DNA from: Escherichia phage phiC120
Length of the DNA: 64,000 bases
Direction: 5' to 3' (one strand)
Sequence record: KY703222
The position numbers were made by a program, and so were the translations under genes. Within the stretch, counting starts at the first letter, position 1; each line of letters starts with the position of its first letter. Positions 43,462-58,809 of this stretch are shown in pieces. Below the pieces are notes generated by a model. That model was given only the letters and a program-made list of their open reading frames with translations, searched no databases and was not told where the DNA came from.

Positions 43462-44118
43462 ATGGCCGATTTAAAAGCCGGAAGTACAGTTGGTGGTTCC
43501 GTCATATGGCATCAAGGCAATTTTCCTTTAATGCCAGCTGGCGATGACATCCTATATAAAACATTTAAATTATACACTGAATATAACAAGCCAAAAGCGG
43601 CTGATAACGATTTCGTATCTAAAGCAAACGGCGGGACATATCTCAAAAAGGTAATCTTTAACGAAGGTGTTGCAGTCAAAACAGCAGATGACCAAACGAA
43701 TGGTATTTTTTCTGGTGGTGGTGACGCCGCGACATTCGACCAAACAAACATGGATATTGTTTCGTGGTATGGTATTGGGTTTAAATCATCTCAAGGTACC
43801 GGTGAAAGAACTGTTGTAATTGATACTCGCACCGGTAATATAAGTTCTAAAGGCGTTATTGAAGCATCTCAATTCAGAGCCACAACGTTAGCACCTTTAA
43901 ATAATTACGACCTTACTCGCAAAGATTATGTTGATAGTCAAATAAATACAGTTAATGCTAATGCAAACAGTCGCGTACTCCGTTCAGGAGATACGATGAC
44001 CGGCGCTCTAACAGCCCCAAACTTTTTCTCACAGAATCCTGCATCTCAACCCTCGCATGTTCCACGATTTGACCAAATTGTTATTAAGGATTCTGTTCAA
44101 GATTTCGGCTATTATTAA
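43462..44118 (+). CDS. 36: gp36 long tail fibre distal connector
   Basis: 218 aa (T4 gp36 about 221 aa); gene order. Confidence 0.8.
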   Translation: MADLKAGSTVGGSVIWHQGNFPLMPAGDDILYKTFKLYTEYNKPKAADNDFVSKANGGTYLKKVIFNEGVAVKTADDQTNGIFSGGGDAATFDQTNMDIVSWYGIGFKSSQGTGERTVVIDTRTGNISSKGVIEASQFRATTLAPLNNYDLTRKDYVDSQINTVNANANSRVLRSGDTMTGALTAPNFFSQNPASQPSHVPRFDQIVIKDSVQDFGYY

Positions 44119-44126
44119 GAGGACTT

Positions 44127-47100
44127 ATGGCTACTTTAAAACAAATACAATTTAAAAGAAGCAAAACTGCAGGAGCACGTCCTGCCGCTTCAGTATTAGC
44201 CGAAGGTGAATTGGCTATAAACTTAAAAGACCGTGTACTTTTTACTAAAGATGACCAAGGAAATATTATTGATCTGGGTTTTGCTAAAGGCGGTAGTATT
44301 GACGGGAATGTTATTCATACAGGTAATTATAACCAAACTGGCGATTATACTTTAAATGGTGTCTTCACTCAGACTGGTAATTTTAATTTAACTGGTATTG
44401 CTCGAGTAACTCGTGATATTATCGCCGCTGGGCAGATTATGACTGAAGGCGGAGAACTTATTACAAAAAGTTCAGGTACAGCACATGTTCGTTTTTTCGA
44501 TAACAATAGCCGCGAACGTGGAATCATTTATGCCCCGGCTAATGATGGTTTAACTACACAAGTACTTAATATCAGGGTTCAAGACTACGCCGCTGGTGGT
44601 GAAAGCACCTATGCATTTTCGGGCAGTGGACTATTTACTTCACCTGAAGTATCAGCATGGAAATCTATTTCGTCTCCACAAATTCTGACCGACAAAGTTA
44701 TTACAAATGGGAAGAAGACAGGCGATTATGATATCTATTCATTATCAAATAACACTCCAATGGCAGAAGGCGAAACGGCTATTAACCACCTCCGTGTTAT
44801 GCGAAATGCTGTAGGAGCAGGTATTTTCCACGAAGTTAATGTTAATGACGGAATAACCTGGTATTCCGGAGATGGCTTAGACACTTATCTTTGGTCGTTT
44901 AACTGGGCCGGTGGATTGAAAGCGGGTCATTCTATTTCTATAGGTATCCCAGGCGGTCCAAAAGGACATTCTGAATTAGGAACTGCTTCGATTGCTCTTG
45001 GTGATAATGACACCGGGTTAAAATGGCATCAAGATGGATATTTCTATACAGTAAACAACGGAACAAAAACTTTCATCTATGGTCCAGGAGAAACGCAAAG
45101 CCTTAGAAAAATGGTTATGGCTTATTCTCCAGATGGGCTTCTTATGACAACGCCACCGACAGAAAACTATGCTTTGGCCACTGTTGTTACTTACCATGAT
45201 AATAACGCGTATGGTGACGGTCAAACTCTTTTAGGTTATTACCAAGGCGGTAACTATCATCACTATTTCCGCGGTAAGGGTACTACAAACATTAATACTC
45301 ATGGCGGTTTGTTAGTTACTCCAGGTAATATTGATGTTATTGGCGGTTCTGTTAATATAGATGGTAGAAATAATTCTTCTACACTAATGTTTAGAGGCAA
45401 CACAGCAGGATACAGCTCGGTTGATAATATGGATATTAAAGTTTGGGGTAATACGTTTGTTGATCCAAGCGGAGGTATCCGTAAAAACATTATGGAAATT
45501 TCTGATGCAACTAGCTGGATGAGCTATATTCAAAGACTTACTACTGGCGAAGTAGAAATGAACGTTAATGGTTCATTTGAATCATCTGGTGTTACTGCTG
45601 GAGATAGAGGAGTTCACACAACAGGTGAAATTTCATCTGGAGCAGTGAATGCTCTTCGTATTTGGAACGCAGATTATGGAGCCATTTTTAGACGTTCAGA
45701 AGGAAGTCTTCATATTATTCCAACTGCTTATGGCGAAGGCAAAGATGGCGATATCGGTCCACTTCGCCCGTTTAGTATGGCTTTAGATACCGGTAAAGTT
45801 ACTATTCCAGATTTACAATCAAGTTACAATACGTTTGCTGCGAATGGCTATATTAAATTTGTTGGTCATGGAGCGGGTGCCGGCGGTTATGACATTCAAT
45901 ATGTTCAAGCGGCTCCTATTTTCCAGGAAATCGATGATGACGCTGTAAGCAAATATTATCCTATTGTTAAACAGAAGTTTTTAAACGGTAAATCCGTTTG
46001 GTCTTTAGGTACCGAAATTGAATCAGGTACATTCGTTATTCATCATCTGAAAGAAGATGGTTCACAAGGCCATGCGTCTCGTTTTAATCAAGACGGTACT
46101 GTTAACTTCCCAGATAACGTTCTGGTCAGCGGCGATATTAACATGAAAGGCGTGATGACTTTTGACCCCGGACGTTTAGGATCACGAGATTATTTTAAAT
46201 TTAACCATTGGGGTGATAGTAATAATGGTCGTGATAACATCATCCAGTTAGAAGATAGTCGAGGCGCTCATTTTTCCACTGAACGTACTTTAGCGACAGG
46301 TGCAATTAAAACTCGTTTCTTTGGCGAAACCTTCACTGACGGTACATTATACCTAAATCAGATGAATAATAGCTCTGAACGATTCTCTATCAACAATTGG
46401 GGAAATTCAGAAGTTGGTCGCGCGGCAGTATTGGAAGTCGGCGATTCAAAAGGTTATCACTTCTATGCTGAACGCAGGACAGATAACAGTTTGATGTTTG
46501 ATGTTGCTGGTGCTTTGACCGTGCATGGACCTAACGGAATAACCATCAAAAACTCAACTGGTGCACGACATATCTGGTTTAGAGATGATAGCGATGCAGA
46601 AAAGGCTGTTATCTGGGCTACAGATGATGGTATTTTACATATACGAAATAATTATGGGGGTTCATTTAGTCATCACTTCCGGGGTGCAATGATTCTAGCG
46701 GGAGAGCGTGTTCCATATAATAGTGAATACGCTCTTATCCGTGGTAATATTTCCGGTGGTGCATGGGTAGACTGGCGAGATCGTCCGGCTGGATTATTGG
46801 TAGACTGTCAGGACTCACGAAATCAAGCATATAACATTTGGAAAGCTACTCATTGGGGCGAACAGCACCTTGCGGCGATGGGTGTTCATGCTGGCGGTGG
46901 TAATCCTCATGTTGTATTGCATGTGGGTGGGAATGATTATGCATTTGCATCTAACGGTGATTTTACTGCTGGTGCTGCTGTATATTGTAACGACGTTTAT
47001 ATTCGTTCTGACCGTCGTCTGAAAATTAATGTTGAAGACTACGAAGAGAATGCGGTGGATAAGGTAAATAAACTCAAAGTTAAAACCTATGATAAAGTTA

Positions 47101-47360
47101 AATCTCTTTCTGACCGCGAAGTTATCGGCCATGAGATTGGTATTATCGCACAGGATTTGCAAGAAGTATTACCGGAAGCTGTTAGCACTTCTAGTGTCGG
47201 ATCTCAGGATAACCCAGAAGAAATTTTAACAATTTCAAACTCTGCTGTGAACGCGCTTTTAATTAAGGCCATTCAGGAAATGAGCGAAGAAATTAAAGAA
47301 TTGAAAACGCCTCTCTTTACTAAAATTGCTCGCAAAATTAGTAAATATTTTAAATTCTAA
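44127..47360 (+). CDS. 37: gp37 long tail fibre distal subunit with C-terminal intramolecular chaperone-like domain
   Basis: 1077 aa; N-terminus MATLKQIQFKRSKTAGARPAASVLAEGELAINLKDR typical of gp37/gp12-type fibres; C-terminal ~110 aa (DKVNKLKVKTYDK...GIIAQDLQEVLPEAV) resembles self-cleaving chaperone domains. Confidence 0.85.
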   Translation: MATLKQIQFKRSKTAGARPAASVLAEGELAINLKDRVLFTKDDQGNIIDLGFAKGGSIDGNVIHTGNYNQTGDYTLNGVFTQTGNFNLTGIARVTRDIIAAGQIMTEGGELITKSSGTAHVRFFDNNSRERGIIYAPANDGLTTQVLNIRVQDYAAGGESTYAFSGSGLFTSPEVSAWKSISSPQILTDKVITNGKKTGDYDIYSLSNNTPMAEGETAINHLRVMRNAVGAGIFHEVNVNDGITWYSGDGLDTYLWSFNWAGGLKAGHSISIGIPGGPKGHSELGTASIALGDNDTGLKWHQDGYFYTVNNGTKTFIYGPGETQSLRKMVMAYSPDGLLMTTPPTENYALATVVTYHDNNAYGDGQTLLGYYQGGNYHHYFRGKGTTNINTHGGLLVTPGNIDVIGGSVNIDGRNNSSTLMFRGNTAGYSSVDNMDIKVWGNTFVDPSGGIRKNIMEISDATSWMSYIQRLTTGEVEMNVNGSFESSGVTAGDRGVHTTGEISSGAVNALRIWNADYGAIFRRSEGSLHIIPTAYGEGKDGDIGPLRPFSMALDTGKVTIPDLQSSYNTFAANGYIKFVGHGAGAGGYDIQYVQAAPIFQEIDDDAVSKYYPIVKQKFLNGKSVWSLGTEIESGTFVIHHLKEDGSQGHASRFNQDGTVNFPDNVLVSGDINMKGVMTFDPGRLGSRDYFKFNHWGDSNNGRDNIIQLEDSRGAHFSTERTLATGAIKTRFFGETFTDGTLYLNQMNNSSERFSINNWGNSEVGRAAVLEVGDSKGYHFYAERRTDNSLMFDVAGALTVHGPNGITIKNSTGARHIWFRDDSDAEKAVIWATDDGILHIRNNYGGSFSHHFRGAMILAGERVPYNSEYALIRGNISGGAWVDWRDRPAGLLVDCQDSRNQAYNIWKATHWGEQHLAAMGVHAGGGNPHVVLHVGGNDYAFASNGDFTAGAAVYCNDVYIRSDRRLKINVEDYEENAVDKVNKLKVKTYDKVKSLSDREVIGHEIGIIAQDLQEVLPEAVSTSSVGSQDNPEEILTISNSAVNALLIKAIQEMSEEIKELKTPLFTKIARKISKYFKF

Positions 47361-47366
47361 CAACAA

Positions 47367-47381
47367 GGGGGAAATGCCCCC
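47367..47381 (+). terminator. hairpin GGGGGAAATGCCCCC after gene 37
   Basis: 5-bp G/C stem followed by TTT. Confidence 0.4.
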
Positions 47382-47396
47382 TTTGGAGTATAAATT

Positions 47397-48176
47397 ATGG
47401 CAGTAGTTGGAGTTCCTGGCTGGATTGGAAGTTCAGCCGTAAATGAAACGGGCCAGCGCTGGATGAGTCAAGCAGCTGGTCAATTAAGATTGGGTGTTCC
47501 TTGCTGGATGAGTCAATTTGCAGGTCGCTCAAGAGAAATTATTCACACTCTTGGAGCAGACCATAACTTTAATGGTCAATGGTTCCGTGACCGTTGTTTT
47601 GAAGCCGGTGGCGCTCCTATAGTGTTTAATATCACAGGCAACTTAGTATCATATTCTAAAGACGTTCCTTTATTCTTCATGTATGGTGATACTCCTAACG
47701 AATATGTTACTTTGAATATTCATGGTGGTGTTCATATGTGGGGCCGAGGTGGTAACGGTACTGTAAACGGAAACCCAGGCACAAATGGCGGCGATGTAAT
47801 CCAAAATGATATCGGCGGAAGACTTCGTATTTGGAACTATGGCGTTATTGCATCAGGCGGTGGTGGTGGTGGTGCAGTGTCATTACAGAATAGCTGGGCG
47901 CCAAATGCTACAGCAGGTGGCGGTGGTGGTAGACCATTTGGCATCGGCGGAGGCGGCGTTAATTGGCCGGGTGGTAATGCTAGTTATGACGCCCCGGGCG
48001 GCGCCGGTTACACTTCCCAATTCGGCGGAGGCAATGGCGGCGATGCTGGAGGTCGGGGCGGAGATGGATGGGGTAATCACTTATCTAGATCTGGTGGCGG
48101 TGCTCCTGGCAGAGCAGTATTCGGAAGTTCACCGTCATGGGGTGCTACAGGCACAATCTACGGCTCCTGGATTTAA
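47397..48176 (+). CDS. 38: gp38 tail-fibre adhesin of the T2 type (glycine-rich motifs)
   Basis: 259 aa; C-terminal half has poly-glycine islands (GGGGGGA, GGGGGR, GGGG) separated by short variable segments, as in T2-type receptor-recognising gp38. Confidence 0.8.
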
Positions 48177-48194
48177 ACGATAATACCTCTCAAT

Positions 48195-48202
48195 TATAAA
48201 TA
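48195..48202 (+). promoter_or_regulatory. late promoter TATAAATA for holin gene t
   Basis: Exact TATAAATA upstream of RBS GGGAGG and the t start codon. Confidence 0.6.
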
Positions 48203-48209
48203 TTGATAA

Positions 48210-48881
48210 ATGGGAGGTAATATGGCAGCACCAAAAGTATCATTTTCGCCTAGTGATATTTTATTTGGGTTGCTAGACCGCATTTTCAAAGATAACGCCT
48301 CTGGAAATATTCTTATTTCAAGAGTTGCTGTTGTAGTTCTTTTGTTCCTAATGGCACTAATATGGTACAAAGGGAGTATTTTTATGGATTATTACGTGAG
48401 GTCGAAATATGATACTTACACAGAAGTAATTCAAAAAGAAAGAAATACACGATTTGAATCTGCGGCTTTAGAACAACTACAAATAGTCCACGTCACATCA
48501 AGGGCGGATTTTAGTTCGGTGTATTCTTTCAGACCTAAAAATCTAAATTATTTCGTCGACCTTATTGCGTATGAAGGTAAGTTACCTAGCACAGTAACTG
48601 AAAAATCTATGGGAGGATTTCCTGTCGATAAAACAACAGCAGAATATTCGGTCCATTTAAGTGGACTTCACTTTACTTCTAAAACAGATTTTGCTTTCTT
48701 ACCTACCAAAACAAAAACTCCGGAATTAGCATATATGTATAGTTGTCCTTACTTCAATTTGGATAACATATATGCTGGAACTGTTTCTATGTATTGGTAT
48801 AAGGGGTCGGACGTGTTAAATGAAGAACGCTTGGCTGCAATATGCAACCAAGCAGCAAGGATATTAGGGCGAGCTAAATAA
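48210..48881 (+). CDS. t: holin T
   Basis: 223 aa; single N-terminal transmembrane segment; C-terminus AICNQAARILGRAK and PKNLNYFVD motifs close to remembered T4 holin. Confidence 0.9.
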   Translation: MGGNMAAPKVSFSPSDILFGLLDRIFKDNASGNILISRVAVVVLLFLMALIWYKGSIFMDYYVRSKYDTYTEVIQKERNTRFESAALEQLQIVHVTSRADFSSVYSFRPKNLNYFVDLIAYEGKLPSTVTEKSMGGFPVDKTTAEYSVHLSGLHFTSKTDFAFLPTKTKTPELAYMYSCPYFNLDNIYAGTVSMYWYKGSDVLNEERLAAICNQAARILGRAK

Positions 48882-49154
48882 TTAGTTGTTAGAATACATC
48901 GTCAAATGGCGATAAATATTTTCAAAACCTTCATTGAATTCACTAATCAGTGTTTTCTTTTCTTCGGCAGTTAAATTTGTAATTAGTTTTCTGAACGAAT
49001 TCTGATTTAGCTGTCGACCATCTTTTTTAATTCCAATCTCATTCAAGAATCCGATGAAATTTGCTCGGTCTTCAACAATATCTTCCCTAGAGAATTTAAT
49101 CAAAATAGAAGCAATAGTAATAATTTCACGTACAATTTCGATATCTTTATTCAT
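48882..49154 (-). CDS. asiA: AsiA anti-sigma-70 factor
   Basis: 90 aa; MNKDIEIVREIITIASILIKFSREDIVEDRANFIGFLNEIG... close to remembered T4 AsiA. Confidence 0.9.
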   Translation of the reverse strand: MNKDIEIVREIITIASILIKFSREDIVEDRANFIGFLNEIGIKKDGRQLNQNSFRKLITNLTAEEKKTLISEFNEGFENIYRHLTMYSNN

Positions 49155-49200
49155 AACGTTTTATTCATTCCACTTAATTGTTAGGAGTATAGTACCATTA

Positions 49201-49401
49201 TCAGTGTTGATTGTAAACGGCTTTTTCTACGCTTTTAACGTAATCAATGTAGTCTTCCTGTTCATACGAGTGTAAGGCCAAGAACGTGGCTAATAGTTCA
49301 TTATAGACTAAAGCCTCACGCTCACGTTCTGCCTCTACTACGTTCTGAAGATTATGGCTCATATCATTCCTTATAACTATCAATGTAGTCCTGTATGTCA
49401 A
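49201..49401 (-). CDS. hypothetical small protein (start uncertain)
   Basis: ORF overlapping the next ORF by 38 nt; an internal Met at 49362 would remove the overlap. Confidence 0.35.
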   Translation of the reverse strand: MTYRTTLIVIRNDMSHNLQNVVEAEREREALVYNELLATFLALHSYEQEDYIDYVKSVEKAVYNQH

Positions 49402-49651
49402 AGAATGACATTTCGTATTCTAGGACATTAAGAGCCCGTTCTTCAGTATAGTCAGAACCAAATACGATAGTGATTTCACCAGGCTTCATATGATTGAAAT
49501 CGACACTAAAAGGAATACGAGAACATACTTCGTCTGCCATATCGGCAACAACACTACGATATACTTTTCGGTTAACCTGATAAAGCTCTGCAAGTTCTTC
49601 ACATCGAATAACAAGTTCAGTGGCAGGATTTTCTTTGATTTTAGTAAGCAT
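49364..49651 (-). CDS. acidic protein (95 aa); possible Arn-like anti-restriction protein
   Basis: Net acidic composition; sits in the asiA-motA interval where T4 encodes Arn; no sequence motif confirmed. Confidence 0.4.
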   Translation of the reverse strand: MLTKIKENPATELVIRCEELAELYQVNRKVYRSVVADMADEVCSRIPFSVDFNHMKPGEITIVFGSDYTEERALNVLEYEMSFFDIQDYIDSYKE

Positions 49652-49725
49652 AGTCTTTACCCTTATGTTTTTGTTTACGTTTAGATTGAAGTTCTGATTT
49701 CTTCTTGTCCTTATGGACAGAAGCT

Positions 49726-49953
49726 TTATTGAAATCGTGTTTTGCTACAAGATTGTTCATAATGATTTATAACCTCATTTAAACATTTATCAGTAAAGGA
49801 AAACTTTTTAGCCACAGAACATTCGATAATGTGTTCTTTCAAATCTTTAGAGTCGGTATAACCCATCTCAGTAATAAAGTGGCGAATTAAAGCTTTATTC
49901 TTATCATTAACAGAATTAAAATAATCTGCTTTAGAATCAATTATTCTCATCAT
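49726..49953 (-). CDS. hypothetical protein (75 aa)
   Basis: ORF in the asiA-motA accessory cluster. Confidence 0.4.
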   Translation of the reverse strand: MMRIIDSKADYFNSVNDKNKALIRHFITEMGYTDSKDLKEHIIECSVAKKFSFTDKCLNEVINHYEQSCSKTRFQ

Positions 49954-50218
49954 CTAATTTCCTTAATTGATATTGCAACGAGCTAATAATTTCTTCGTTC
50001 ATTTTAATATACATGTCACGCAAGAAAGGTTTTAACCCTTCACGAATAATTGCTAATGTATCACCTTTACATAAATTAACCAAATAAGGATGATCTAAAG
50101 CGTCCCAACCAGGCTGATTAGCATACATACCATAGTTTTCTTCCATCATATGATTAAGACGTTTGATATCTTGGATACGTGATTCAATAGCATCTTTCTG
50201 GAGTTGTTTAATATTCAT
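49937..50218 (-). CDS. hypothetical protein (93 aa)
   Basis: ORF in the asiA-motA accessory cluster. Confidence 0.4.
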   Translation of the reverse strand: MNIKQLQKDAIESRIQDIKRLNHMMEENYGMYANQPGWDALDHPYLVNLCKGDTLAIIREGLKPFLRDMYIKMNEEIISSLQYQLRKLDDENN

Positions 50219-50679
50219 TAATAAAGGTCCTCTGAATAAAGTTCTTTCTCACTTCCGCCACGTTCAATACGTACCTGTCCAGCATACGTTGCAATAATCA
50301 TTGCTTCTTCACGCGTCCAGTAATTAGAATATTGGTCAATAAAGCCTTGGTCGTCACCACAAACTTGTTGCGAGACTAATTGAGGACCAACTATATCAAG
50401 TACTTCAGCCATATCTTTGGAGTAATGACGAACTCCAGGAATAACCAGAGTTCTACCACTCTTCAATTTAAACCTATTAGCTGCACATACTATAACACGT
50501 TGAACTTTTTGGTCATTGTTCCAATAGCACGTTTGCCAACAGATTTCAGGAACTTCATTCATTATATCATCAGCAGAATAATTATAACCGTAGGACTGGA
50601 ATTTTTCTGCTAGACTTTCAGGAGTCTCACGAGACAAGGCCAAATCTAATAGCTCTAAGCGTTCTTTAAATGATTTCAT
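50218..50679 (-). CDS. hypothetical protein (153 aa)
   Basis: ORF abutting neighbours. Confidence 0.45.
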
Positions 50680-51020
50680 TTAAACCATTCCTTAATACGT
50701 TGCCAAATAGATTTTTGTGCTTGTTTATTTACACCAATCGAACGAATAACCGGTTGTGACTGCTGATATTCTTTATAATCTTCTTTATAGATTTCGTAAG
50801 CTGCATCAACAAATGAACTGATCGCTGCCATGTAGTTTTTACGTACACCGCCTGGAGCTACTCCATTAGGAAATTCAGAATTTTCGCGAATAATTAAATA
50901 TAACCCAGCTCTAACTTTAACGATAGTTCCAAGATAAGCTCCATGGTACCAAATATCCCATCCTTCCTGAGTAGGTTCTGCACATTTACGAAGTTCGTTA
51001 ATAATATTCAGCTTATTCAT
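50676..51020 (-). CDS. hypothetical protein (114 aa)
   Basis: ORF with ATGA overlap to the downstream ORF. Confidence 0.45.
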
Positions 51021-51030
51021 TATGTATTCC

Positions 51031-51663
51031 TCACAGTACGTTAGTTACAAGGGTAATGATTTCTTTGGACACATTAGGGAAGTCAATGTAAGTATATTTA
51101 CCACCGATCTTAATCTTAACATCATTTTCAAGAGAAGTAAACAGCTTTGATTCAGTTTCTGACATGTTGTATGCAAAGATTCTAAGAGCGCCATCTCGTC
51201 GAATTTCAATTTGGCGAATGCCTAGAACTCGTTTAGCGAATCGAACTTCTAAGTTACTACGGTTTTCACCAATTTCTTTAACTTCAACTTTATCTTTAAT
51301 ATTTTCAAAAACAAAGTTTGCTAATTCATGCATTTCAGGAGTAACTCCACGTGCTTTTCTAGTGTTACGTTTCTGAAGAAGTTCTGGAGCATTTTCTTGA
51401 GCAAATAGGTCTGCAGCTTTTTGGATAATATCCATTGCTTCGCCGGTTGCCACAAGTCCATCACCAGATTTTTCGACTAAACCTTTCTTAATCAATACAC
51501 CAATGTTAGAGTTAACAACTGATGCATTGTATTCTGCTTCCAGAGCTTCACGGACATTGGCAGCAGTGGTGAAGTTGTTCTTAATGATATAAACCATTAT
51601 TGCCGCAGTTTTTTCATTCAGAGCGTTTTCAGAAGCTTTGATGATGTAAGTAACTTTAGACAT
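51031..51663 (-). CDS. motA: MotA middle-transcription activator
   Basis: 210 aa (T4 MotA is 211 aa); N-terminus MSKVTYIIKAS... close to remembered T4 MotA; preceded by early promoter. Confidence 0.85.
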   Translation of the reverse strand: MSKVTYIIKASENALNEKTAAIMVYIIKNNFTTAANVREALEAEYNASVVNSNIGVLIKKGLVEKSGDGLVATGEAMDIIQKAADLFAQENAPELLQKRNTRKARGVTPEMHELANFVFENIKDKVEVKEIGENRSNLEVRFAKRVLGIRQIEIRRDGALRIFAYNMSETESKLFTSLENDVKIKIGGKYTYIDFPNVSKEIITLVTNVL

Positions 51664-51701
51664 TTTATTTCTCCAATTTGGTTGTTTTGTTTTGATAGGT
51701 C

Positions 51702-51731
51702 TATAATATCACGTTTGAAGCACATGTAAAC
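51702..51731 (-). promoter_or_regulatory. early promoter (GTTTAC -35, TATTAT -10) for motA
   Basis: Minus strand GTTTAC-N17-TATTAT followed by RBS GGAG and the motA ATG. Confidence 0.5.
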
Positions 51732-51760
51732 TGTTTTGTGAGAAAAAAAAAATGCACAAA

Positions 51761-51776
51761 GGGAGCCGAAGCTCCC
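51761..51776 (-). terminator. hairpin GGGAGCCGAAGCTCCC with long T-run, between gene 52 and motA
   Basis: Perfect stem-loop followed on minus strand by TTTGTGCATTTTTTTTTT. Confidence 0.6.
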
Positions 51777-51852
51777 TAATCGTGATTGTCCAACCAATAC
51801 AGCCAAATCACTAGTGCGGCTATTGCACCGAGAAATCCTAAGGCTAGGGCAC

Positions 51853-53178
51853 TCAAAGTGCCTCCAAGTCTTTAGTGTACTCTGTCACAACATCAGTAGA
51901 CTTCCAATACTCATTTTCTTCTTTCTTAGCTTTAGCTTCTTCTGCTAGTTTACGTGCTTCATCGGAAGTGATATGGAAGATGTTAAGACCTACCAGTTTA
52001 TCGACATGTTCTTTATACATTTCGATTTGTGCTAGCTCTTCAGTCAAAGCTTTACGAGTCTTGCCCTGAATCACAATTTCACCACTGATAACTTTTTTGA
52101 TGAAGTGTGCCTTAGCAAAAGCCAGTTTAAATGCTTTTTCAGATTCAAGGATTTTGTTGTCAATACGTTTCTGAACGTAAGTCTTACGGACTTCAACAAA
52201 ATCTTTGATTAAGTCTACTACATTATCGTAGACCGCTAATTTACCTTTTTCATTAATCACTGTGATGTTTTGTGAACGACGTTCGATGAGACTAAAATCT
52301 TTCATGATTTTTTCATGACGTAGCTCTTCATTATCAGGAAGCGAGTACTCTTTACGGAACTTCACCTTAAACCCAAAGCCGTGTTCACCACAATCATCTT
52401 CCCATGAGATTAGACCTTTGTCTTCCAACGGGTCAAGAACCTTACTCACATACGTTTCACGGTCGAATTTATATGGGATTTCAGTTATCTGCATTTGAGT
52501 ACGAGATGTGAACTTATATGTTCCATGAATCTCATATCGCCCATCAACTTCATGCACTTCACCACGGAATTCCGGGAATTCAACTTTTGGCTTAGTGACA
52601 TTTTTACCTTGAAGAGCTTGTAATACAGCCTTTTTGACTGATTTAAAACTATGAGGCAGAATATTTGTTGCGTAACCGGTTGCAATACCAGAGACACCAT
52701 TCAAAAGAACTGTCGGAATAATAGGAAGATAGAATTTTGGTGGAACGTGTTCTTTATCTTCATGAGCTGGAGCATATTCAGTATCTTTATAGACATTATA
52801 GAAATTTTTACTTACACGAGCAAAAATATAACGAGATGCTGCAGCTTTTTGGACTGTTCTAGAACCAAAGTTGCCTTGGCCATCTAACAGTGGATAGTTG
52901 TTGTTCCATGTGTTAGCCATCAATGCACCTGCATCTTGTGCAGAAGATTCACCATGGTGATAACCTAAATCTGCAACACCACCCGCAATTGACGCAAGTT
53001 TATGAAATTTTTCTTTATTACCACGAGCCAAATCTAATGCACGATGAACCACAAAACGTTGAACCGGCTTAAATCCATCAATCATATTTGGGATTGCACG
53101 GTTTTCAACGGTGTACATCGCGTATGCTAAGGCTTCGTTATCAATAATACTTTTTAGATTACGAGAATTCAATTGCAT
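51853..53178 (-). CDS. 52: gp52 DNA topoisomerase II medium subunit (GyrA-like cleavage subunit)
   Basis: 441 aa (T4 gp52 is 442 aa); GyrA-like N-terminus NEALAYAMYTVENRAIPNMIDGFKPVQRF. Confidence 0.95.
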   Translation of the reverse strand: MQLNSRNLKSIIDNEALAYAMYTVENRAIPNMIDGFKPVQRFVVHRALDLARGNKEKFHKLASIAGGVADLGYHHGESSAQDAGALMANTWNNNYPLLDGQGNFGSRTVQKAAASRYIFARVSKNFYNVYKDTEYAPAHEDKEHVPPKFYLPIIPTVLLNGVSGIATGYATNILPHSFKSVKKAVLQALQGKNVTKPKVEFPEFRGEVHEVDGRYEIHGTYKFTSRTQMQITEIPYKFDRETYVSKVLDPLEDKGLISWEDDCGEHGFGFKVKFRKEYSLPDNEELRHEKIMKDFSLIERRSQNITVINEKGKLAVYDNVVDLIKDFVEVRKTYVQKRIDNKILESEKAFKLAFAKAHFIKKVISGEIVIQGKTRKALTEELAQIEMYKEHVDKLVGLNIFHITSDEARKLAEEAKAKKEENEYWKSTDVVTEYTKDLEAL

Positions 53179-53182
53179 ATTT

Positions 53183-53323
53183 TCACCATATTAATGAACG
53201 AATAATCATTATAACATCTGAAATGAAAAGCACTACTTGGATTAGTCCAAACATCACACCGTAGTACAGAACCGTAAGCAACAACAAGAGCCCGAAGGCT
53301 CCTGCTAAGATGTTCTTAATCAT
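53183..53323 (-). CDS. small hydrophobic membrane peptide (46 aa)
   Basis: Hand-translated MIKNILAGAFGLLLLLTVLYYGVMFGLIQVVLFISDVIMIIRSLIW; TAATG overlap with upstream small ORF; below the 60-aa cutoff. Confidence 0.4.
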   Translation of the reverse strand: MIKNILAGAFGLLLLLTVLYYGVMFGLIQVVLFISDVIMIIRSLIW

Positions 53324-53469
53324 TACTCGCCTTTTAACACGTTAATAAGAGCTAAGACCGCTAAGGTACCTTGTGATACTGCCTGTTGAAATACTGTTGT
53401 TTCGCCCGTAACTAAAGTGTTAACGAATAAAAACGACCAACACAGCAATGCAATAATCCATGCTACCAT
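53323..53469 (-). CDS. small membrane peptide (48 aa)
   Basis: Hand-translated MVAWIIALLCWSFLFVNTLVTGETTVFQQAVSQGTLAVLALINVLKGE; RBS AGGTAATTAAAATG; below the 60-aa cutoff. Confidence 0.4.
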   Translation of the reverse strand: MVAWIIALLCWSFLFVNTLVTGETTVFQQAVSQGTLAVLALINVLKGE

Positions 53470-53521
53470 TTTAATTACCTCAAAAATAAATTAAAGGCCT
53501 AACTTAATAGGTCCGTATAAA

Positions 53522-53968
53522 TTAGTAACTCTGCAGAATGAATTTGAAATTATCAGCCAGAAGACGGTTCATTTCAGTGAGTGTTTGATATTCTGACGTA
53601 TGGTTGCGAGTGAATGCCAGAGCCAATTGACCTTTACCATAACCAGTAGTCAGTGGTTTCATGTTCTTAGCTGCAACAAAGATTACATCATATTCAATAT
53701 TGTTAGTGGCCATGGTACGAGCTAGTTGTGAACGGCCTTGACGAATGTGAGAAAGAATTGCATCTAACCCTTGTTTAGAACGTTGACGTCCTACAAAGAA
53801 TCGTGCTGCTACTTGACGCCAGTCAGATGAACCTTTAACGAAGAAGTAAAAACCTTCACGAGAACGAAACTCTTTAGAAACTTCAGAACCGTATTCGCCA
53901 TTACGAACTACTGCAACAACTTCACCACCGACTGCCAGAAGGTCTTTACGAGTTAAATATTTGGTCAT
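53522..53968 (-). CDS. ndd: Ndd nucleoid-disruption protein
   Basis: 148 aa; ...[31 protein letters not shown]...[22 protein letters not shown]...[12 protein letters not shown] matches remembered T4 Ndd pattern. Confidence 0.75.
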
Positions 53969-54005
53969 GCTAATTTCCTCAATTGATTAATGTTTTTGTA
54001 ATCCA

Positions 54006-54040
54006 TGAGAGCATTATACTCTGCTCTCAAGAGTTTGTAC
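54006..54040 (-). promoter_or_regulatory. early promoter-like element with TATAAT inside 8-bp inverted repeat TGAGAGCA/TGCTCTCA, upstream of ndd
   Basis: Core AGCAGAGTATAATGCT is the same as at 25719; followed by RBS GAGGAAA and the ndd ATG. Confidence 0.5.
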
Positions 54041-54044
54041 AATT

Positions 54045-54245
54045 TTATTCGGCCATATCAGAACGTTCAAAAAGCTCTTCAACAGTTAAACATTCAGTGT
54101 CATCCTCGATAAAGAATCGGGTCCAACACGTTGGGGCGATGCAGTTATGAGTTTGTCCAGCTATAGAAGCTACACGAATAAGCTGCTGTCCATTATTCAG
54201 GACAAATTTTTCACCAATTTCAACATCTTTAAAAAGCTTAGCCAT
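54045..54245 (-). CDS. hypothetical protein (66 aa)
   Basis: ORF preceded by early-type promoter. Confidence 0.4.
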   Translation of the reverse strand: MAKLFKDVEIGEKFVLNNGQQLIRVASIAGQTHNCIAPTCWTRFFIEDDTECLTVEELFERSDMAE

Positions 54246-54259
54246 TTTGTGTTCCTCAT

Positions 54260-54300
54260 GTTTAAGTAGGACTACTATACCATAATCCTACTGTGTTGTA
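54260..54300 (-). promoter_or_regulatory. early-type promoter (GTTTAC -35, TATAGT -10)
   Basis: Minus strand GTTTACAACACAGTAGGATTATGGTATAGTAGTCC; near-identical to the element at 54775. Confidence 0.5.
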
Positions 54301-54495
54301 AACAATTAAATTACATTAAGATATGTTAAAGCCAACCATGTTCCAGTGAACGAGCATGCAATGTAAAAAACCGTATCACAAAATGTTCTTAGTACAATAA
54401 GAAGTGCATTTTTCATAAGTACCTCAACACAATTGAAAATATTATACAAATCATTGGGATACTAAGCAACCATATTCCTATCCACATTTTAGAGC

Positions 54496-54759
54496 TCATA
54501 TCTCAACTTCCGTGAGTTCCATATATCCTTTGTTGATAACCTCTTTAAGGTCTTTAGAAAGAATAACACCAAAATGGTCATTCATATGTCCATTAACTAA
54601 ACGAGTTATTTCGGCTTCGGATGACATATAAGGCACGTCTGAGTCCCAATGAGATAGACCTAAATGAGTATAAATCATCCCTTCGTCATCTGCAGTGTTG
54701 TACATTGAAACAAACTCACCAGTCACTTTATGTTTTGCGTAGAAAAATTTAAATTTCAT
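54496..54759 (-). CDS. hypothetical protein (87 aa)
   Basis: ORF preceded by early-type promoter and RBS. Confidence 0.4.
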   Translation of the reverse strand: MKFKFFYAKHKVTGEFVSMYNTADDEGMIYTHLGLSHWDSDVPYMSSEAEITRLVNGHMNDHFGVILSKDLKEVINKGYMELTEVEI

Positions 54760-54774
54760 GATGTTATCCTCTTT

Positions 54775-54815
54775 TAGATAGGACTACTATATCATAGTCC
54801 TACTTAGTTGTAAAC
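54775..54815 (-). promoter_or_regulatory. early-type promoter (GTTTAC -35, TATAGT -10)
   Basis: Minus strand GTTTACAACTAAGTAGGACTATGATATAGTAGTCC. Confidence 0.5.
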
Positions 54816-54828
54816 ACTTTTTATGGAA

Positions 54829-55449
54829 TTAAAGATGAAGATACCACCCGTTGTAGTTGCTCTTACGAACGATTTTCTTTAGGTCTTCATGGTCTCCCAC
54901 GAACTTTATAGAATAAGAGAAGACGTCAGGTGAGGTTTCTTTGACATTCAATATAATAATACAGTCTGCAACTCGATGATTCAGGAAGGGCCCTATGTTG
55001 ATTCCGTTGCCACCCGGATAATCACCACTGTATCCTGTGGTAACAGAAATCCATTTAGAATCCATCTGATGTGTCTTGACTTCTACACGAATTCCACAAT
55101 ATTTAGGATGGGCTAACACGTCCCATGCATACGTGTACGGGTCTTCTACGTCTTCATTACCTTTATTAACATATCCGTCTAGCCAATTTGCTACTACATA
55201 CTCTGCAAAGACTGCAACCTTACAACGTCGAACTACATCTTCTTTGTTTTGGTCTGGATTTTGGCTCAATGAATATCGAGCAGTGTCAGCAATCTTCACT
55301 TTCATTTCACTAGTCAAAAACTCATTCGACAGGATAAATGTCGGAAGATTCTTCAGTCTCAACAGTCCCAAGTTCGTCTTTACCATAGATACCTCTGATG
55401 TGTAGTTCGCCAAAATAAATGCGGTCTCCTTCTTCAAGATAGTTAGCAT
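54829..55449 (-). CDS. hypothetical protein, possibly DenB-like (start uncertain)
   Basis: 206-aa ORF near rIIB where T4 encodes endonuclease IV (denB); overlaps ORF 55322..55609 by 128 nt, so one start is wrong; no catalytic motif confirmed. Confidence 0.4.
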   Translation of the reverse strand: MLTILKKETAFILANYTSEVSMVKTNLGLLRLKNLPTFILSNEFLTSEMKVKIADTARYSLSQNPDQNKEDVVRRCKVAVFAEYVVANWLDGYVNKGNEDVEDPYTYAWDVLAHPKYCGIRVEVKTHQMDSKWISVTTGYSGDYPGGNGINIGPFLNHRVADCIIILNVKETSPDVFSYSIKFVGDHEDLKKIVRKSNYNGWYLHL

Positions 55450-55609
55450 CTACCGGTGGGATTTCAATAACAACTTCGTCGCATTCTAACCAGCCATAGT
55501 GTGCATCACCAGGATGTTTTACCAATTTAGCACAATAAACTGATTTACACTTATGATGACCACGAAGATTAGCAATTTTGGATTCTGATACGTCAAATGG
55601 ATGAATCAT
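55322..55609 (-). CDS. hypothetical protein (95 aa), conflicting with 54829..55449
   Basis: ORF directly downstream of rIIB; Cys/His-containing. Confidence 0.3.
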   Translation of the reverse strand: MIHPFDVSESKIANLRGHHKCKSVYCAKLVKHPGDAHYGWLECDEVVIEIPPVDANYLEEGDRIYFGELHIRGIYGKDELGTVETEESSDIYPVE

Positions 55610-55629
55610 AATTACCCCTAAAGAAAAAA

Positions 55630-55645
55630 GGGGACCGAAGTCCCC
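55630..55645 (-). terminator. hairpin GGGGACCGAAGTCCCC with T-run after rIIB
   Basis: Perfect stem-loop followed on minus strand by TTTTTTCTT. Confidence 0.6.
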
Positions 55646-55650
55646 AATTA

Positions 55651-56586
55651 TTATTCTGCAAATAATTCAGTAACGTCTGAAATTACTTCATAACGACAAG
55701 TACGCATCTTAGCATCACCATAGTCAACTGGGATGGATACAACATCACGTGGATGAACTTTAACCTTAACAACTTTATCTGAGCTAGAACCAAAGTAACG
55801 AATATATGATTTAGCGCAAACATGTAGACCGCGGGAGCAGGTTTGTGTATCATCATCGTTAACACGAGTACGAGGCATTGAAACAACTTTACCTGGTGAG
55901 TTATCAAATGTACCGCTATAACAATCTAAATAGTCTTTACGAACTACTTTCCACGCATAGAAATACCCATCTTCAGTGATTTCAATATCATTTGCAACCA
56001 AGAAGTCGAATAAACGTTGTACAGCTTTTTCGCTTGGGTTTTCTAACAGGTTTTCAAGGAATGGCAGATAGAATTTAAAGTCTTCGCCTTTTTCCATGGA
56101 ATCAATAATACGATTAACCAGTCCTGAACGAATTTCTATACCTTGATAAAATAAACTACCGCCTTCAATAGTAACATTACCATCAACAAACTTAGTAATA
56201 GCTTTCTTGATGTTAATAAGTTCGACAGCTTTACTAAGGTTTCCTGCGACCAGATTAGCTTTAATTTCTTCAAAATTTGCATGACTTGATGGGGTCGCAT
56301 TGTATGCTACGCGTCCTTCAATGATTGAAATAAATTTAGATGACGCGTTCCATATGATTTCTGGACGATGTCCGCCGATAATAGGTTCATCATTTTCTGG
56401 GACCTGTTCTTCGTCTTCAAATTCAGCTGCTTTCTCTTCAGCTTTAAAATTCTTAACAATCTTACGAAGAGTGTCGGTGGAAATATTGAAGTAATCAGCA
56501 ATTTCCTGACGGGTCCATTGGCCTGATTTAACCAGTCCGTAAGCTTCTAACTGTTCTTCTTGGGACAAGCATTTAATATTGTACAT
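55651..56586 (-). CDS. rIIB: RIIB
   Basis: 311 aa (T4 rIIB is 312 aa); immediately downstream of rIIA. Confidence 0.85.
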   Translation of the reverse strand: MYNIKCLSQEEQLEAYGLVKSGQWTRQEIADYFNISTDTLRKIVKNFKAEEKAAEFEDEEQVPENDEPIIGGHRPEIIWNASSKFISIIEGRVAYNATPSSHANFEEIKANLVAGNLSKAVELINIKKAITKFVDGNVTIEGGSLFYQGIEIRSGLVNRIIDSMEKGEDFKFYLPFLENLLENPSEKAVQRLFDFLVANDIEITEDGYFYAWKVVRKDYLDCYSGTFDNSPGKVVSMPRTRVNDDDTQTCSRGLHVCAKSYIRYFGSSSDKVVKVKVHPRDVVSIPVDYGDAKMRTCRYEVISDVTELFAE

Positions 56587-56595
56587 AATGTTTCC

Positions 56596-58809
56596 TTATT
56601 TGGCCGCTTCCACGGCCTTCATGAATTTAACGATTTGAGCGACCTGTTCTTTGGAAAGAGTACCACGTCGTCCCATGTAGTCTGACACAATATGATAATT
56701 GGTTTCGAATTCAATAACCATTTTATCATCATTATCGTAAGCATTATCTTTAAGCTTATCGAAAATTTTAGCACACAATTCTAACTTCTTATTCAGTTCT
56801 CTGTTAGTAGCACCTGAGAATCGATTCCATCCCCAACGATTATTTACTGTTGAGAGTTTTGCAAAATCTTTACTGATTTCTTTGTTCTTAGAGCTAAAAT
56901 ACTTACTAAGGAAGTTAAGCTCTTCATTACGAGTAATATGATTCAAATAAGGTTGAGCTCTACGACTTGGTGATACATACTCATCATAATCCACTTTATC
57001 GATTAGCGTAATATAGTCATTAATTGATTTTTCGAACAAGCATTCTACTTCACCAAGTTTACGAACTTTCTTAGCAATCTGCGGACGAACTACAGTGAAC
57101 TCTTTAATACCTGACAAATCAGCAATACGGGTCAAGAAATTGGAGTCATAGTTCAACCAACCTTTATCTGCGTCAAGACATTCAGCATTAGAACGATTAC
57201 GAACTATAGCATAACCTTGGATTTCATCTGCTTCACTTGCCGGAATAAAGAGGTCTTCTGATACCCAAACATCGTTTTCATTCTTAAAGAATCGATGAGC
57301 ACTTGGCGATTTAGGACGAGGCTCATTAGTCCGTTTCCTGACTTCAATCCATGGCTTAACGATTTGTAAAAGCTCTGAAGTCTTGTACATGTTAATGTTG
57401 TCGCCATCAAAGATAACTTTAAGGCGTTCCAGAAGTTTCATTGCATCTTCGTCTGTAGGGTCAACGAATATTACGCTTTTACCAAAACCGCGCGGAACTT
57501 TACCAGTTAATTTAACCTCGTCTTTAGACATTTCAATTGAATTAAGAGCTCGCATTAATGGAACGCGTCCCTTAACGTCGTCAATAACAATTTCAACGTT
57601 TTTAATGTTAATGCCAATCAGACTGTTAATTGAAATGGTTGCCGTTGAGCTACCGCTTTCACGAATACGGCGAAGACGAGTGGATTCAACGATATCGTAT
57701 ACTACGCCAAGATTACACCACTCAGGCCCCATTTTAAAACGTTTGTACAACTCAGAATAAGTTAGTTGTTCTTTGGAGTATTTCAGTGATTCAATATTAG
57801 ACCCAGCCTTTTCCATGTATTTACGAGCGGTATAGCCAAGAGAATCAATTTCACGGAACACATGACGTGGGTATTTACAATCAATCCATTTCTTAGAATC
57901 TTCAGCGAACAATTTAGCATCTATTTCTGCAACGCGTTTATGGATATTTGCTACTGTACGTTTATCAAACGACAATGCTTCACGAGACGGGGCTACATCT
58001 AGTTCACCCATAGGGAATTTAATATAAGCTGTAGTGCATCGTGTCATCATCCATGTTTGTTCTTTAATAACACTTCCGATTGGATATACAATACCGCCAT
58101 AAACAGCCATGATATTACCACGTTCACCCCATGGAGCTTCCTTGGCCAAATATACATCGTCAAATTCAGGGAAGTATTTAATATCTTTAACACCACGAAC
58201 TTCTGCAATATCACCTAGAGGACGCATAACATATGCAATTTCGGATGCAAACTTTTCAAAATCTTCCGGGTTAACCGGTACAACTACTTCTACACCCGTA
58301 CGGTCGTCAGGACCCATCTTATCTACAAATGTCGGCTTAATTTGTGGACCTGTGTCATCTTGGTAGATTACGTAACCACGAACTTCACCGTTGTGATAAG
58401 ACGTAAGGTTAAACGTATCAGTATATGCTAATGGAGCTTTAGAACCGAGTCCGAATCCACCGATGAAATCGTTACTCGATGTTTTAGTTGAAGCAAAATA
58501 TGAGTTATAGATTCCTGGCTCTTCGTCATTACCTCGAATGGTGAAATCACTCATACCAGGACCAAAGTCTCGAACTACAAAACGTGGGTCTAAACGACCT
58601 GGAGCCTGAACAATAAACTTATCAGTGCAACCATTAAGAATTTGTCCATCGATACAGTTTGTAATTAATTCACGTACACAAGCCAATTCTTTGTTTGTAT
58701 AAAGGTCATTAGACAAAATCTTATAAACTTTGCTATTGCCTTGAATAGTGAATGCTGTGCTCTTACCACCTGAACCAATAATCGTTTCTTTAGCCGTTTC
58801 AATAATCAT
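56596..58809 (-). CDS. rIIA: RIIA (membrane-associated, GHKL-like ATPase N-terminal region)
   Basis: 737 aa (T4 rIIA about 725 aa); N-terminal ELITNCIDG / GxGxS-like ATPase motifs; order rIIA-rIIB. Confidence 0.9.
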   Translation of the reverse strand: MIIETAKETIIGSGGKSTAFTIQGNSKVYKILSNDLYTNKELACVRELITNCIDGQILNGCTDKFIVQAPGRLDPRFVVRDFGPGMSDFTIRGNDEEPGIYNSYFASTKTSSNDFIGGFGLGSKAPLAYTDTFNLTSYHNGEVRGYVIYQDDTGPQIKPTFVDKMGPDDRTGVEVVVPVNPEDFEKFASEIAYVMRPLGDIAEVRGVKDIKYFPEFDDVYLAKEAPWGERGNIMAVYGGIVYPIGSVIKEQTWMMTRCTTAYIKFPMGELDVAPSREALSFDKRTVANIHKRVAEIDAKLFAEDSKKWIDCKYPRHVFREIDSLGYTARKYMEKAGSNIESLKYSKEQLTYSELYKRFKMGPEWCNLGVVYDIVESTRLRRIRESGSSTATISINSLIGINIKNVEIVIDDVKGRVPLMRALNSIEMSKDEVKLTGKVPRGFGKSVIFVDPTDEDAMKLLERLKVIFDGDNINMYKTSELLQIVKPWIEVRKRTNEPRPKSPSAHRFFKNENDVWVSEDLFIPASEADEIQGYAIVRNRSNAECLDADKGWLNYDSNFLTRIADLSGIKEFTVVRPQIAKKVRKLGEVECLFEKSINDYITLIDKVDYDEYVSPSRRAQPYLNHITRNEELNFLSKYFSSKNKEISKDFAKLSTVNNRWGWNRFSGATNRELNKKLELCAKIFDKLKDNAYDNDDKMVIEFETNYHIVSDYMGRRGTLSKEQVAQIVKFMKAVEAAK

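Follow-up and report, generated by a model that had tools for sequence, protein, structure and literature searches.

Genes of the asiA-motA interval

Here we describe the interval between asiA and motA in Escherichia phage phiC120 (sequence record KY703222); positions are those of the window, the whole 64,000-nucleotide (nt) stretch of DNA that was analysed. Seven co-directional genes, all on the minus strand, fill the interval, and one of them encodes a 95-amino-acid (aa) acidic protein that resembles the anti-restriction protein Arn of phage T4. A sequence-only reading made earlier had counted six packed open reading frames (ORFs) of 53-153 aa between 49155 and 51020. All six were found at those positions, on the minus strand and tightly spaced; a seventh gene of 39 aa had been overlooked, and four of the ORFs that had been left unassigned are orthologues of T4 arn.1-arn.4. 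The genes of the interval and the two genes that bound it are listed below.

48882..49154, minus strand: asiA (anti-sigma-70), the downstream boundary; Pfam AsiA 113 bits, 74% identity to T4 AsiA
49201..49362, minus strand: AsiA.1-like gene (= RB69ORF258c), 53 aa, net charge -6; phrog_5245
49364..49651, minus strand: Arn-like gene (= RB69ORF259c), 95 aa; diverged homologue of T4 Arn
49641..49760, minus strand: DUF7230 micro-gene, 39 aa, very basic (net charge +8); Pfam DUF7230, 49.3 bits with a cutoff of 27
49726..49953, minus strand: arn.1 orthologue, 75 aa; phrog_4452
49937..50218, minus strand: arn.2 orthologue, 93 aa; phrog_1844
50218..50679, minus strand: arn.3 orthologue, 153 aa, net charge -7; residues 1-30 correspond to nt 50590-50679
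50676..51020, minus strand: arn.4 orthologue, 114 aa; phrog_1594
51031..51663, minus strand: motA (activator of middle transcription), the upstream boundary; MotA_activ 134 bits, MotCF 34.5 bits

The 2.9-kb stretch from asiA to motA showed an identity of 98.4% with Shigella phage ESh27 and of 96.6% with RB69. In the RB69 record the genes run t, asiA, RB69ORF258c, RB69ORF259c, arn.1, arn.2, arn.3, arn.4, motA and 52, and the T4 reference has asiA, asiA.1, arn, arn.1-arn.4 and motA in the same place. The identity to RB69 and ESh27 and the matching gene order therefore indicate that phiC120 is a Mosigvirus (an RB69-like T-even phage) and that the interval is its arn operon; the gene order of RB69 and T4 bears out the earlier assignment of this interval to the region of T4 Arn and arn.1-4. 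The orthologues of arn.1-arn.4 matched their T4 counterparts in BLASTP with E-values from 1e-20 to 1e-90, in conserved order.

Read from motA toward asiA, the order is arn.4, arn.3, arn.2, arn.1, DUF7230 micro-gene, Arn-like gene and AsiA.1-like gene, and the seven are probably translationally coupled early or middle genes. Only 10 nt separate motA from arn.4. Within the interval, the widest gap at a junction is 1 nt and the largest overlap 35 nt, and a Shine-Dalgarno-like sequence precedes each ATG. All six ORFs of the earlier list matched PHROG families, with E-values from 1e-22 to 1e-70. The ratio of nonsynonymous to synonymous substitution rates (dN/dS) per gene was 0-0.19 against RB69 and 0.08-0.46 against T4 or IME341, the latter given only where dS was unsaturated, and all interval genes are under purifying selection.

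The 95-aa protein and T4 Arn

The 95-aa protein carries a net charge of -9 and has an isoelectric point (pI) of 4.51, and the corresponding values for T4 Arn (92 aa) are -9 and 4.55. The sequence-only reading had picked out this product as net acidic; that is correct, though the 53-aa (-6) and 153-aa (-7) products are acidic as well. The identity of the 95-aa protein to T4 Arn is only 16-18%. An AlphaFold2 model of the protein (predicted local distance difference test score, pLDDT, 87.6; predicted template-modelling score, pTM, 0.75) was compared by Foldseek with 350,542 Protein Data Bank (PDB) chains, and the only match with E < 1e-3 was T4 Arn itself in its crystal structure, 3WX4 (E 4.7e-4; template-modelling (TM) score 0.78/0.76). 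The alignment to 3WX4 spanned 93 columns at 16% identity, and the second-best fold match reached a TM score of 0.34.

We also searched 1.84 billion representative proteins exhaustively with a HMMER profile of the 95-aa family. The results showed only two credible relatives, P0007 and P0011. P0011 (91 aa) matched the family profile with E 4.5e-7 and T4 Arn itself with 33% identity over 90 aa (pairwise E 7e-11). When the family, including P0011 and the homologue from the Dhakavirus IME341, was compared with T4 Arn by hhalign, a probability of 91.4% was obtained (E 8.9e-7, 83 columns). CC31p263 and the 109-aa acidic ORF of RB43, also considered as Arn homologues, reached 9.7% and 0.1% in hhalign, which gives neither of them clear support. 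The family and T4 Arn have in common a helix motif, LY(R/H)S(I/V), and, at the C-terminus, the motif (Y/F)(D/E)I(Q/E/H)DY(I/F)(D/E). T4 Arn has 16 acidic residues, and eight of them were aligned to acidic residues of the 95-aa protein, compared with 3.0 expected (p ~0.002), and hydrophobic positions coincided in 32 columns, compared with 21.8 expected.

The genomic surroundings are similar too. Immediately downstream of P0011 come a 42-aa MSHNL ORF, asiA and the holin gene t, and the IME341 homologue (34% identity) lies between a 39-aa gene and an AsiA.1-like gene. T4 Arn was found in 485 records only, all at least 88% identical, and the 95-aa family in 177 other records at the same genomic slot; the two are alternative occupants of that slot. 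Among predicted viral structures, Arn-fold proteins of 86-93 aa were found in the T4-like phages EcS1, KP179 and AmPh_EK29, with TM scores of 0.65-0.78. These results support the 95-aa protein as a remote, strongly diverged Arn homologue, and the fold match to 3WX4, the intermediate P0011, the hhalign probability of 91% and the synteny uphold the earlier proposal that the acidic ORF might be Arn.

Two other candidates for this ORF were rejected. The PP7 coat protein (6n4v, E 2.9e-4) came from a tandem-dimer chain counted twice, a single chain giving E 0.65; it was not among the top 50 listed fold matches of the model, and the sequence match was judged to be chance. The Pfam family NEL fell far under its cutoff and was treated as chance.

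By mimicking DNA, T4 Arn inhibits McrBC, a nuclease of hydroxymethyl-cytosine DNA, and it also binds H-NS (PMC12871103; bioRxiv 10.64898/2026.06.19.733364). It blocks the PUA-Cal-HAD defence filament as well; T2 Arn, which differs in three residues, does not (PMC12871103). By homology to T4 Arn, the 95-aa protein is most likely a DNA mimic directed against McrBC-type nucleases. Made early, it would present a DNA-like array of carboxylates, which would fill the site where modification-dependent nucleases, McrBC among them, bind DNA, and new, still unglucosylated hydroxymethyl-cytosine DNA would thereby escape cutting; other DNA binders, for example H-NS or PUA-Cal-HAD, might be bound too. Taking the interval as a whole, we think it probable that it is the arn operon of an RB69-type phage in which the 95-aa gene encodes a diverged Arn that likely mimics DNA against McrBC-type nucleases.

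It is also possible, although we rate it on the unlikely side, that the 95-aa protein has kept the Arn fold and acts on another target, such as H-NS, PUA-Cal-HAD-type filaments, type I restriction-modification systems or RecBCD-like enzymes. A shifted target spectrum is a serious alternative because the protein evolves fast (dN against T4 of 0.85, among the three fastest in the interval, compared with 0.15 for Arn.3) and because the three substitutions between T4 and T2 Arn suffice to change PUA-Cal-HAD inhibition (PMC12871103). The low identity to T4 Arn and the several targets already known for T4 Arn (PMC12871103) are consistent with such a shift. On the other side, half of the acidic positions of T4 Arn have been kept. 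Mosigviruses also make hydroxymethyl-cytosine DNA, and on that footing the selective pressure from McrBC should be equal.

Several points weigh against a DNA-mimicking Arn encoded in an arn operon. A direct BLASTP comparison of the 95-aa protein with T4 Arn gave no match. The AlphaFold2 model was built on a shallow alignment of seven close sequences, and 3WX4 predates AlphaFold training and was among the training data. The link between Mosigvirus and McrBC, the Arn dimer and the phosphate-like charge geometry would all be carried over from T4 Arn, and at 16-18% identity the target specificity may have changed. Concerning expression, the promoter and terminator consensus matches described below were not above the chance number in the region, and the MotA-box WWTGCTTYA was not found anywhere from window position 43629 to 57973. 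For T2 arn.2 an ArcZ pairing site has been reported, which was recovered in the T4 sequence as CCAGGGAAAU; this site is absent in the window, where the best duplexes with ArcZ were no better than shuffled ones.

That the 95-aa protein is an unrelated acidic ORFan which replaced Arn by non-homologous exchange, its fold match being an AlphaFold artefact, is highly improbable: the negative BLASTP result, the shallow alignment and the different gene content of the interval between genera would fit such an exchange, but the P0011 link and the profile comparison support homology independently of AlphaFold, conservation extends to the length, the charge, the C-terminal motif and the flanking genes, and the match of P0011 to T4 Arn together with hhalign has largely refuted it already. 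In the favoured reading, the 95-aa protein is the Mosigvirus/Dhakavirus version of Arn, with the alpha/beta fold, the length, the charge, many acidic positions, the C-terminal YEIxDYFE-type motif and the slot kept. Far from all six ORFs having established non-defence functions, none has an established function of any kind, and one of them is homologous to a proven anti-restriction protein.

Arn.3 and the other genes of the interval

Arn.3 is the most conserved protein of the interval (99% identity to RB69 and 77% to T4). Its residues ~45-153 form a conserved core domain, PF26092 in precomputed Pfam annotation, which is predicted to be confidently folded in the model and there matched no known fold. 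The homologues of Arn.3 fall into 125 clusters, including jumbo phages and stand-alone forms of ~85 aa, and PF26092 was present, by precomputed annotation, in all but one of the 120 listed homologue clusters; in the long homologues no domain fusion was recognised by Pfam. The invariant residues comprise AANR 66-69, RH 84-85, QGFxD 111-115, R123, Q135 and a C-terminal LxSE(D/N)LY, and they look enzyme-like or ligand-binding-like.

The N-terminal segment of Arn.3 matched no Pfam family. As a profile match, residues 1-30 were aligned to positions 1-30 of PADLOC PD-T4-9_B (77 positions) with E 1.9e-7. The same profile was matched by the 45-aa N-terminal fragment alone and by 8/8 further extension-bearing homologues (E down to 2.5e-10), and it was not matched by CC31 Arn.3, which is without the N-terminal extension; ten reversed or shuffled Arn.3 controls gave no match at E <= 10. 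PD-T4-9 is the CmdTAC toxin-antitoxin-chaperone system, which defends E. coli against T-even phages, and its second gene encodes the antitoxin CmdA, described as having two helices at its N-terminus and, after them, a disordered chaperone-addiction tail. The earlier statement that the remaining ORFs had no recognisable motifs was thus too strong, given PF26092 in the homologues of the 153-aa protein and the resemblance of its N-terminus to CmdA.

Arn.3 could be a counter-defence protein whose hairpin mimics the toxin-binding part of CmdA and thereby neutralises CmdT-like ADP-ribosyltransferase toxins or disturbs toxin-antitoxin-chaperone systems, a reading we regard as doubtful. The PD-T4-9_B matches are reproducible across the fragment and the homologues with negative controls, and the helices of the Arn.3 model at 4-16 and 20-29 resemble the N-terminal helix pair of CmdA. 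Set against this, T4 has the module (a weaker match, E 0.0026) and is nevertheless blocked by ECOR22 CmdTAC, and T4 escape mutants map to alt.-3, not to arn.3; the match is also short, covering thirty residues, and stands at profile level. A CmdA sequence was sought among proteins (with the N-terminal 45 aa), E. coli genomes, plasmids and phages, and none was recovered; a pattern scan of genome contigs returned only an unrelated segment in a contig of an Anaerolineae metagenome-assembled genome, which was rejected.

The CmdA-like hairpin together with the enzyme-like core makes Arn.3 the best candidate for a second counter-defence activity in the interval. A fuller version, in which Arn.3 would be a two-module factor whose hairpin docks to CmdT-like mRNA ADP-ribosyltransferase toxins or the toxin-antitoxin-chaperone complex while the core neutralises or reverses their action, with DUF7230 as a further small, near-universal and so far unrecognised effector of T4-like phages, seems to us improbable. 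Two Arn.3 homologues differ in their N-termini: P0018 (203 aa) has the CmdA-like module twice, and P0034 (170 aa) starts with MIPMELDWDG..., the same N-terminus as that encoded by an additional 112-aa gene between arn.4 and arn.3 in IME341. These two proteins indicate module shuffling at the locus.

The 39-aa ORF matched the DUF7230 profile from end to end of the profile, and 5/5 homologues tested matched DUF7230 too. By tblastn it was found in 1341 phage records, far above any neighbouring gene. Against RB69 it shows 5 synonymous and 0 nonsynonymous changes, and its dN/dS against T4 is 0.08. Its overlap is 35 nt with arn.1 and 11 nt with the Arn-like gene. The same ORF, of the form MNNLVAKH(D/N)FNKASVHKDKKK...RKQKHKGK, is present in T4 (NC_000866 161580-161699; L003 2081-2200, minus strand), where it overlaps the start of arn and the end of arn.1, and in RB69, and it is unannotated in both. 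A resemblance to the alternative ribosome-rescue factor ArfA, considered for this ORF, was unsupported on testing: a profile search of PDB chains gave no match at E <= 10, and only DUF families were returned from Pfam at E <= 10. DUF7230 as an obligate partner of Arn was rejected as well; the pairing holds in Tequatro-, Mosig-, Dhaka-, Karam- and Pseudotevenvirus and fails in Proteus PM2 and Vibrio Schizotequatrovirus. In Proteus PM2 and a Vibrio phage DUF7230 lies in unrelated gene contexts.

By position the 53-aa ORF corresponds to T4 AsiA.1, to which it is weakly similar. Its identity is 98% to RB69ORF258c and 41% to the IME341 counterpart; it shares the N-terminal MSHNL with T4 AsiA.1 and 30% identity over 40 aa (E 0.002 in a small database). 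MSHNL and a net charge of -6 are common to the 53-aa protein, T4 AsiA.1 and the counterparts in IME341 and a metagenomic contig. The mechanical ORF list gives this gene as a 66-aa TTG form, but its start is the ATG at 49362, since the PHROG profile and the RB69 annotation begin there. This ATG lies one base after the stop codon of the upstream gene (TGAtATG), behind an AAGGAA Shine-Dalgarno sequence. No mention of the 53-aa RB69ORF258c, the 95-aa RB69ORF259c or DUF7230 was found in the literature searched.

For arn.1-arn.4 no function was known as of June 2026 (bioRxiv 10.64898/2026.06.19.733364). Arn.1 is 100% identical to RB69 over 72 aa and 74-79% to T4; Arn.2 is 100% identical to RB69, 41% to T4 and 63% to IME341; and Arn.4 is 86% identical to RB69, 68% to T4 and 76% to IME341. 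Sequence searches found no relatives of Arn.1, Arn.2, Arn.4 or the 39-aa ORF among solved structures, and Arn.1, Arn.2 and Arn.4 matched no Pfam or NCBIfam family. PADLOC Hp1 for Arn.2 and REase_II for Arn.4 (both E ~1e-3, far under cutoffs) and NCBIfam MphB for Arn.1 (far under cutoff) were treated as chance.

At its C-terminus (window 49726-49734) Arn.1 is 3 residues longer than in RB69, ending ...SCSKTRFQ instead of ...SCSKT, apparently also in ESh27, whose coding sequence has equal length; this looks like a stop-codon difference. The 70-nt "intergenic region" between arn.2 and arn.1 in T4 (L003 2307-2381) is an open frame (INSKSDYFNSLNDKDKNLIRHFIVEMGY...) whose window counterpart is 49867-49953. 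This frame shows homology to the first 29 residues of full-length RB69-type Arn.1, and T4 has no ATG there. Similarly, the T4 frame upstream of the annotated arn.4 (L003 3335-3460; window 50886-51020) is open and near-identical to the N-terminal 44 residues of Arn.4, with a 41-nt identical run and ATA in place of ATG; T4 arn.4 may use a non-canonical start codon or may have lost its start codon recently. Compared with RB69 (L001 2378-2707), arn.4 (50676-51020) shows dS 0.31, dN 0.06 and a 5-aa indel, whereas the dS of its neighbours is 0.03-0.14, and this excess suggests a small recombination patch.

Three transcription signals on the minus strand were picked out by consensus.

51703..51730, minus strand: sigma-70/T4-early-type promoter-like site upstream of motA (TTTACA, 16-nt spacer, TATTAT, TG)
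49189..49217, minus strand: T4-early-type promoter-like site (GTTTACA, 17-nt spacer, TACTAT, extended -10 TG)
48828..48854, minus strand: terminator-like hairpin and T-run downstream of asiA, inside the opposite holin gene t (12-bp stem, 6 GC pairs)

The site upstream of motA is strong, fitting 10/12 consensus positions, the best in the region, and a transcript from motA to asiA probably begins there; the second site lies just upstream of asiA and overlaps the 3' end of the 53-aa gene. The consensus scan showed no terminator-like site on the minus strand from the motA promoter-like site to asiA. The promoter-like sites, the lack of an internal terminator and the coupled starts suggest one transcript from motA to asiA plus an internal asiA promoter. 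An RNase E site has been reported in the 70-nt arn.2-arn.1 spacer of T4 and T2; here arn.2 overlaps arn.1, with no such spacer, and from the absence of the ArcZ site the regulation may differ from that in T2 and T4. Rfam showed no RNA family in 48700-52000.

Two further ORFs lie outside the interval. A 62-aa TTG ORF at window 51618-51806 (minus strand) overlaps the start of motA and the promoter region and has a PHANOTATE-annotated counterpart in ESh27; T4 has the unrelated motA.1 in its place, and the ORF is probably not a real gene. A 259-aa ORF at window 47397-48176 (plus strand) contains the glycine-rich runs GGGGGG, GGGGG and GIGGGG and falls on a local GC peak (0.55); it lies just upstream of holin t (48210-48881), at the T-even slot for the gp38-type tail-fibre adhesin.

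Relatives and comparison with known systems

The arn region itself is ordinary and has already been sequenced in hundreds of phages. A DUF7230 gene followed by an acidic protein of ~92 aa (109 aa in RB43) was found in T4, phiC120, IME341, CC31 and RB43-type phages. An AsiA.1-like ORF and asiA come next in T4, phiC120, IME341 and the metagenomic contig L013, but not in CC31 or RB43. IME341 is without arn.1 and has the extra 112-aa gene, and CC31 is without arn.1 and has two extra genes before asiA. This comparison of gene content indicates that the interval is stable within a genus and modular between genera. The sequence-only reading had called such early regions hyperplastic, which does not describe the six-gene cassette within Mosigvirus: the 2.9-kb asiA-motA query was covered to at least 80% in 146 phage records. 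Between genera the gene content varies.

In the annotation records, the label "anti-restriction nuclease" stands on homologues of arn.1-arn.4 and on phrog_4452 (records H1, H13 and H30; proteins P0014, P0016 and P0022). This misplaced label appears to be the propagated gene name arn.x, while the true homologue, phrog_8202, is called hypothetical. P0004, P0006 and P0016 are T4-like phage proteins deposited in NCBI as Escherichia coli or Salmonella enterica, and they are probably phage sequence inside bacterial assemblies.

What is new here is a strongly diverged member of a known anti-restriction family, within a widely sequenced region. Arn is not limited to the closest relatives of T4, as RB69-type Mosigvirus and Dhakavirus keep a version of it. 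Catalogues of phage anti-defence genes thus undercount Arn, this version having been missed by sequence searches. Two Arn proteins at ~17% identity offer a natural test of whether a DNA mimic retains or shifts its target. For the four arn.x genes, to which no function has been assigned since annotation of the T4 genome, the CmdA-like module of Arn.3 is a concrete lead, and the resemblance between Arn.3 and CmdA and the unannotated DUF7230 gene are most worth following.

Compared with T4 Arn, the 95-aa protein occupies the same slot, flanked by the DUF7230 micro-gene on one side and, toward asiA, by the AsiA.1-like gene on the other, but it belongs to another PHROG, phrog_8202, and was called "hypothetical" in every listed record inspected, because it has no BLAST similarity to T4 Arn. 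The genes arn.1-arn.4 have the same order and orientation as in T4, with identities of 41-79%. Two of them are longer here than in the T4 annotation: arn.1 (75 aa) and arn.4 (114 aa) correspond in T4 to only the C-terminal 43 aa and 68 aa, respectively, each with an internal methionine as the start.

Compared with CmdA, the first ~30 residues of Arn.3 match, and both segments are predicted to form a pair of alpha-helices. Arn.3 then goes on into a folded 110-aa domain, whereas the tail of CmdA is disordered and carries a ClpXP degron, and Arn.3 comes from a lytic phage without CmdT or a SecB-like partner, its neighbours being arn.2 and arn.4. Since just positions 1-34 of the 77 in the profile were matched, the remainder of the protein is folded and the neighbours are arn.2 and arn.4, Arn.3 is not a member of the CmdA family and shares one module with it.

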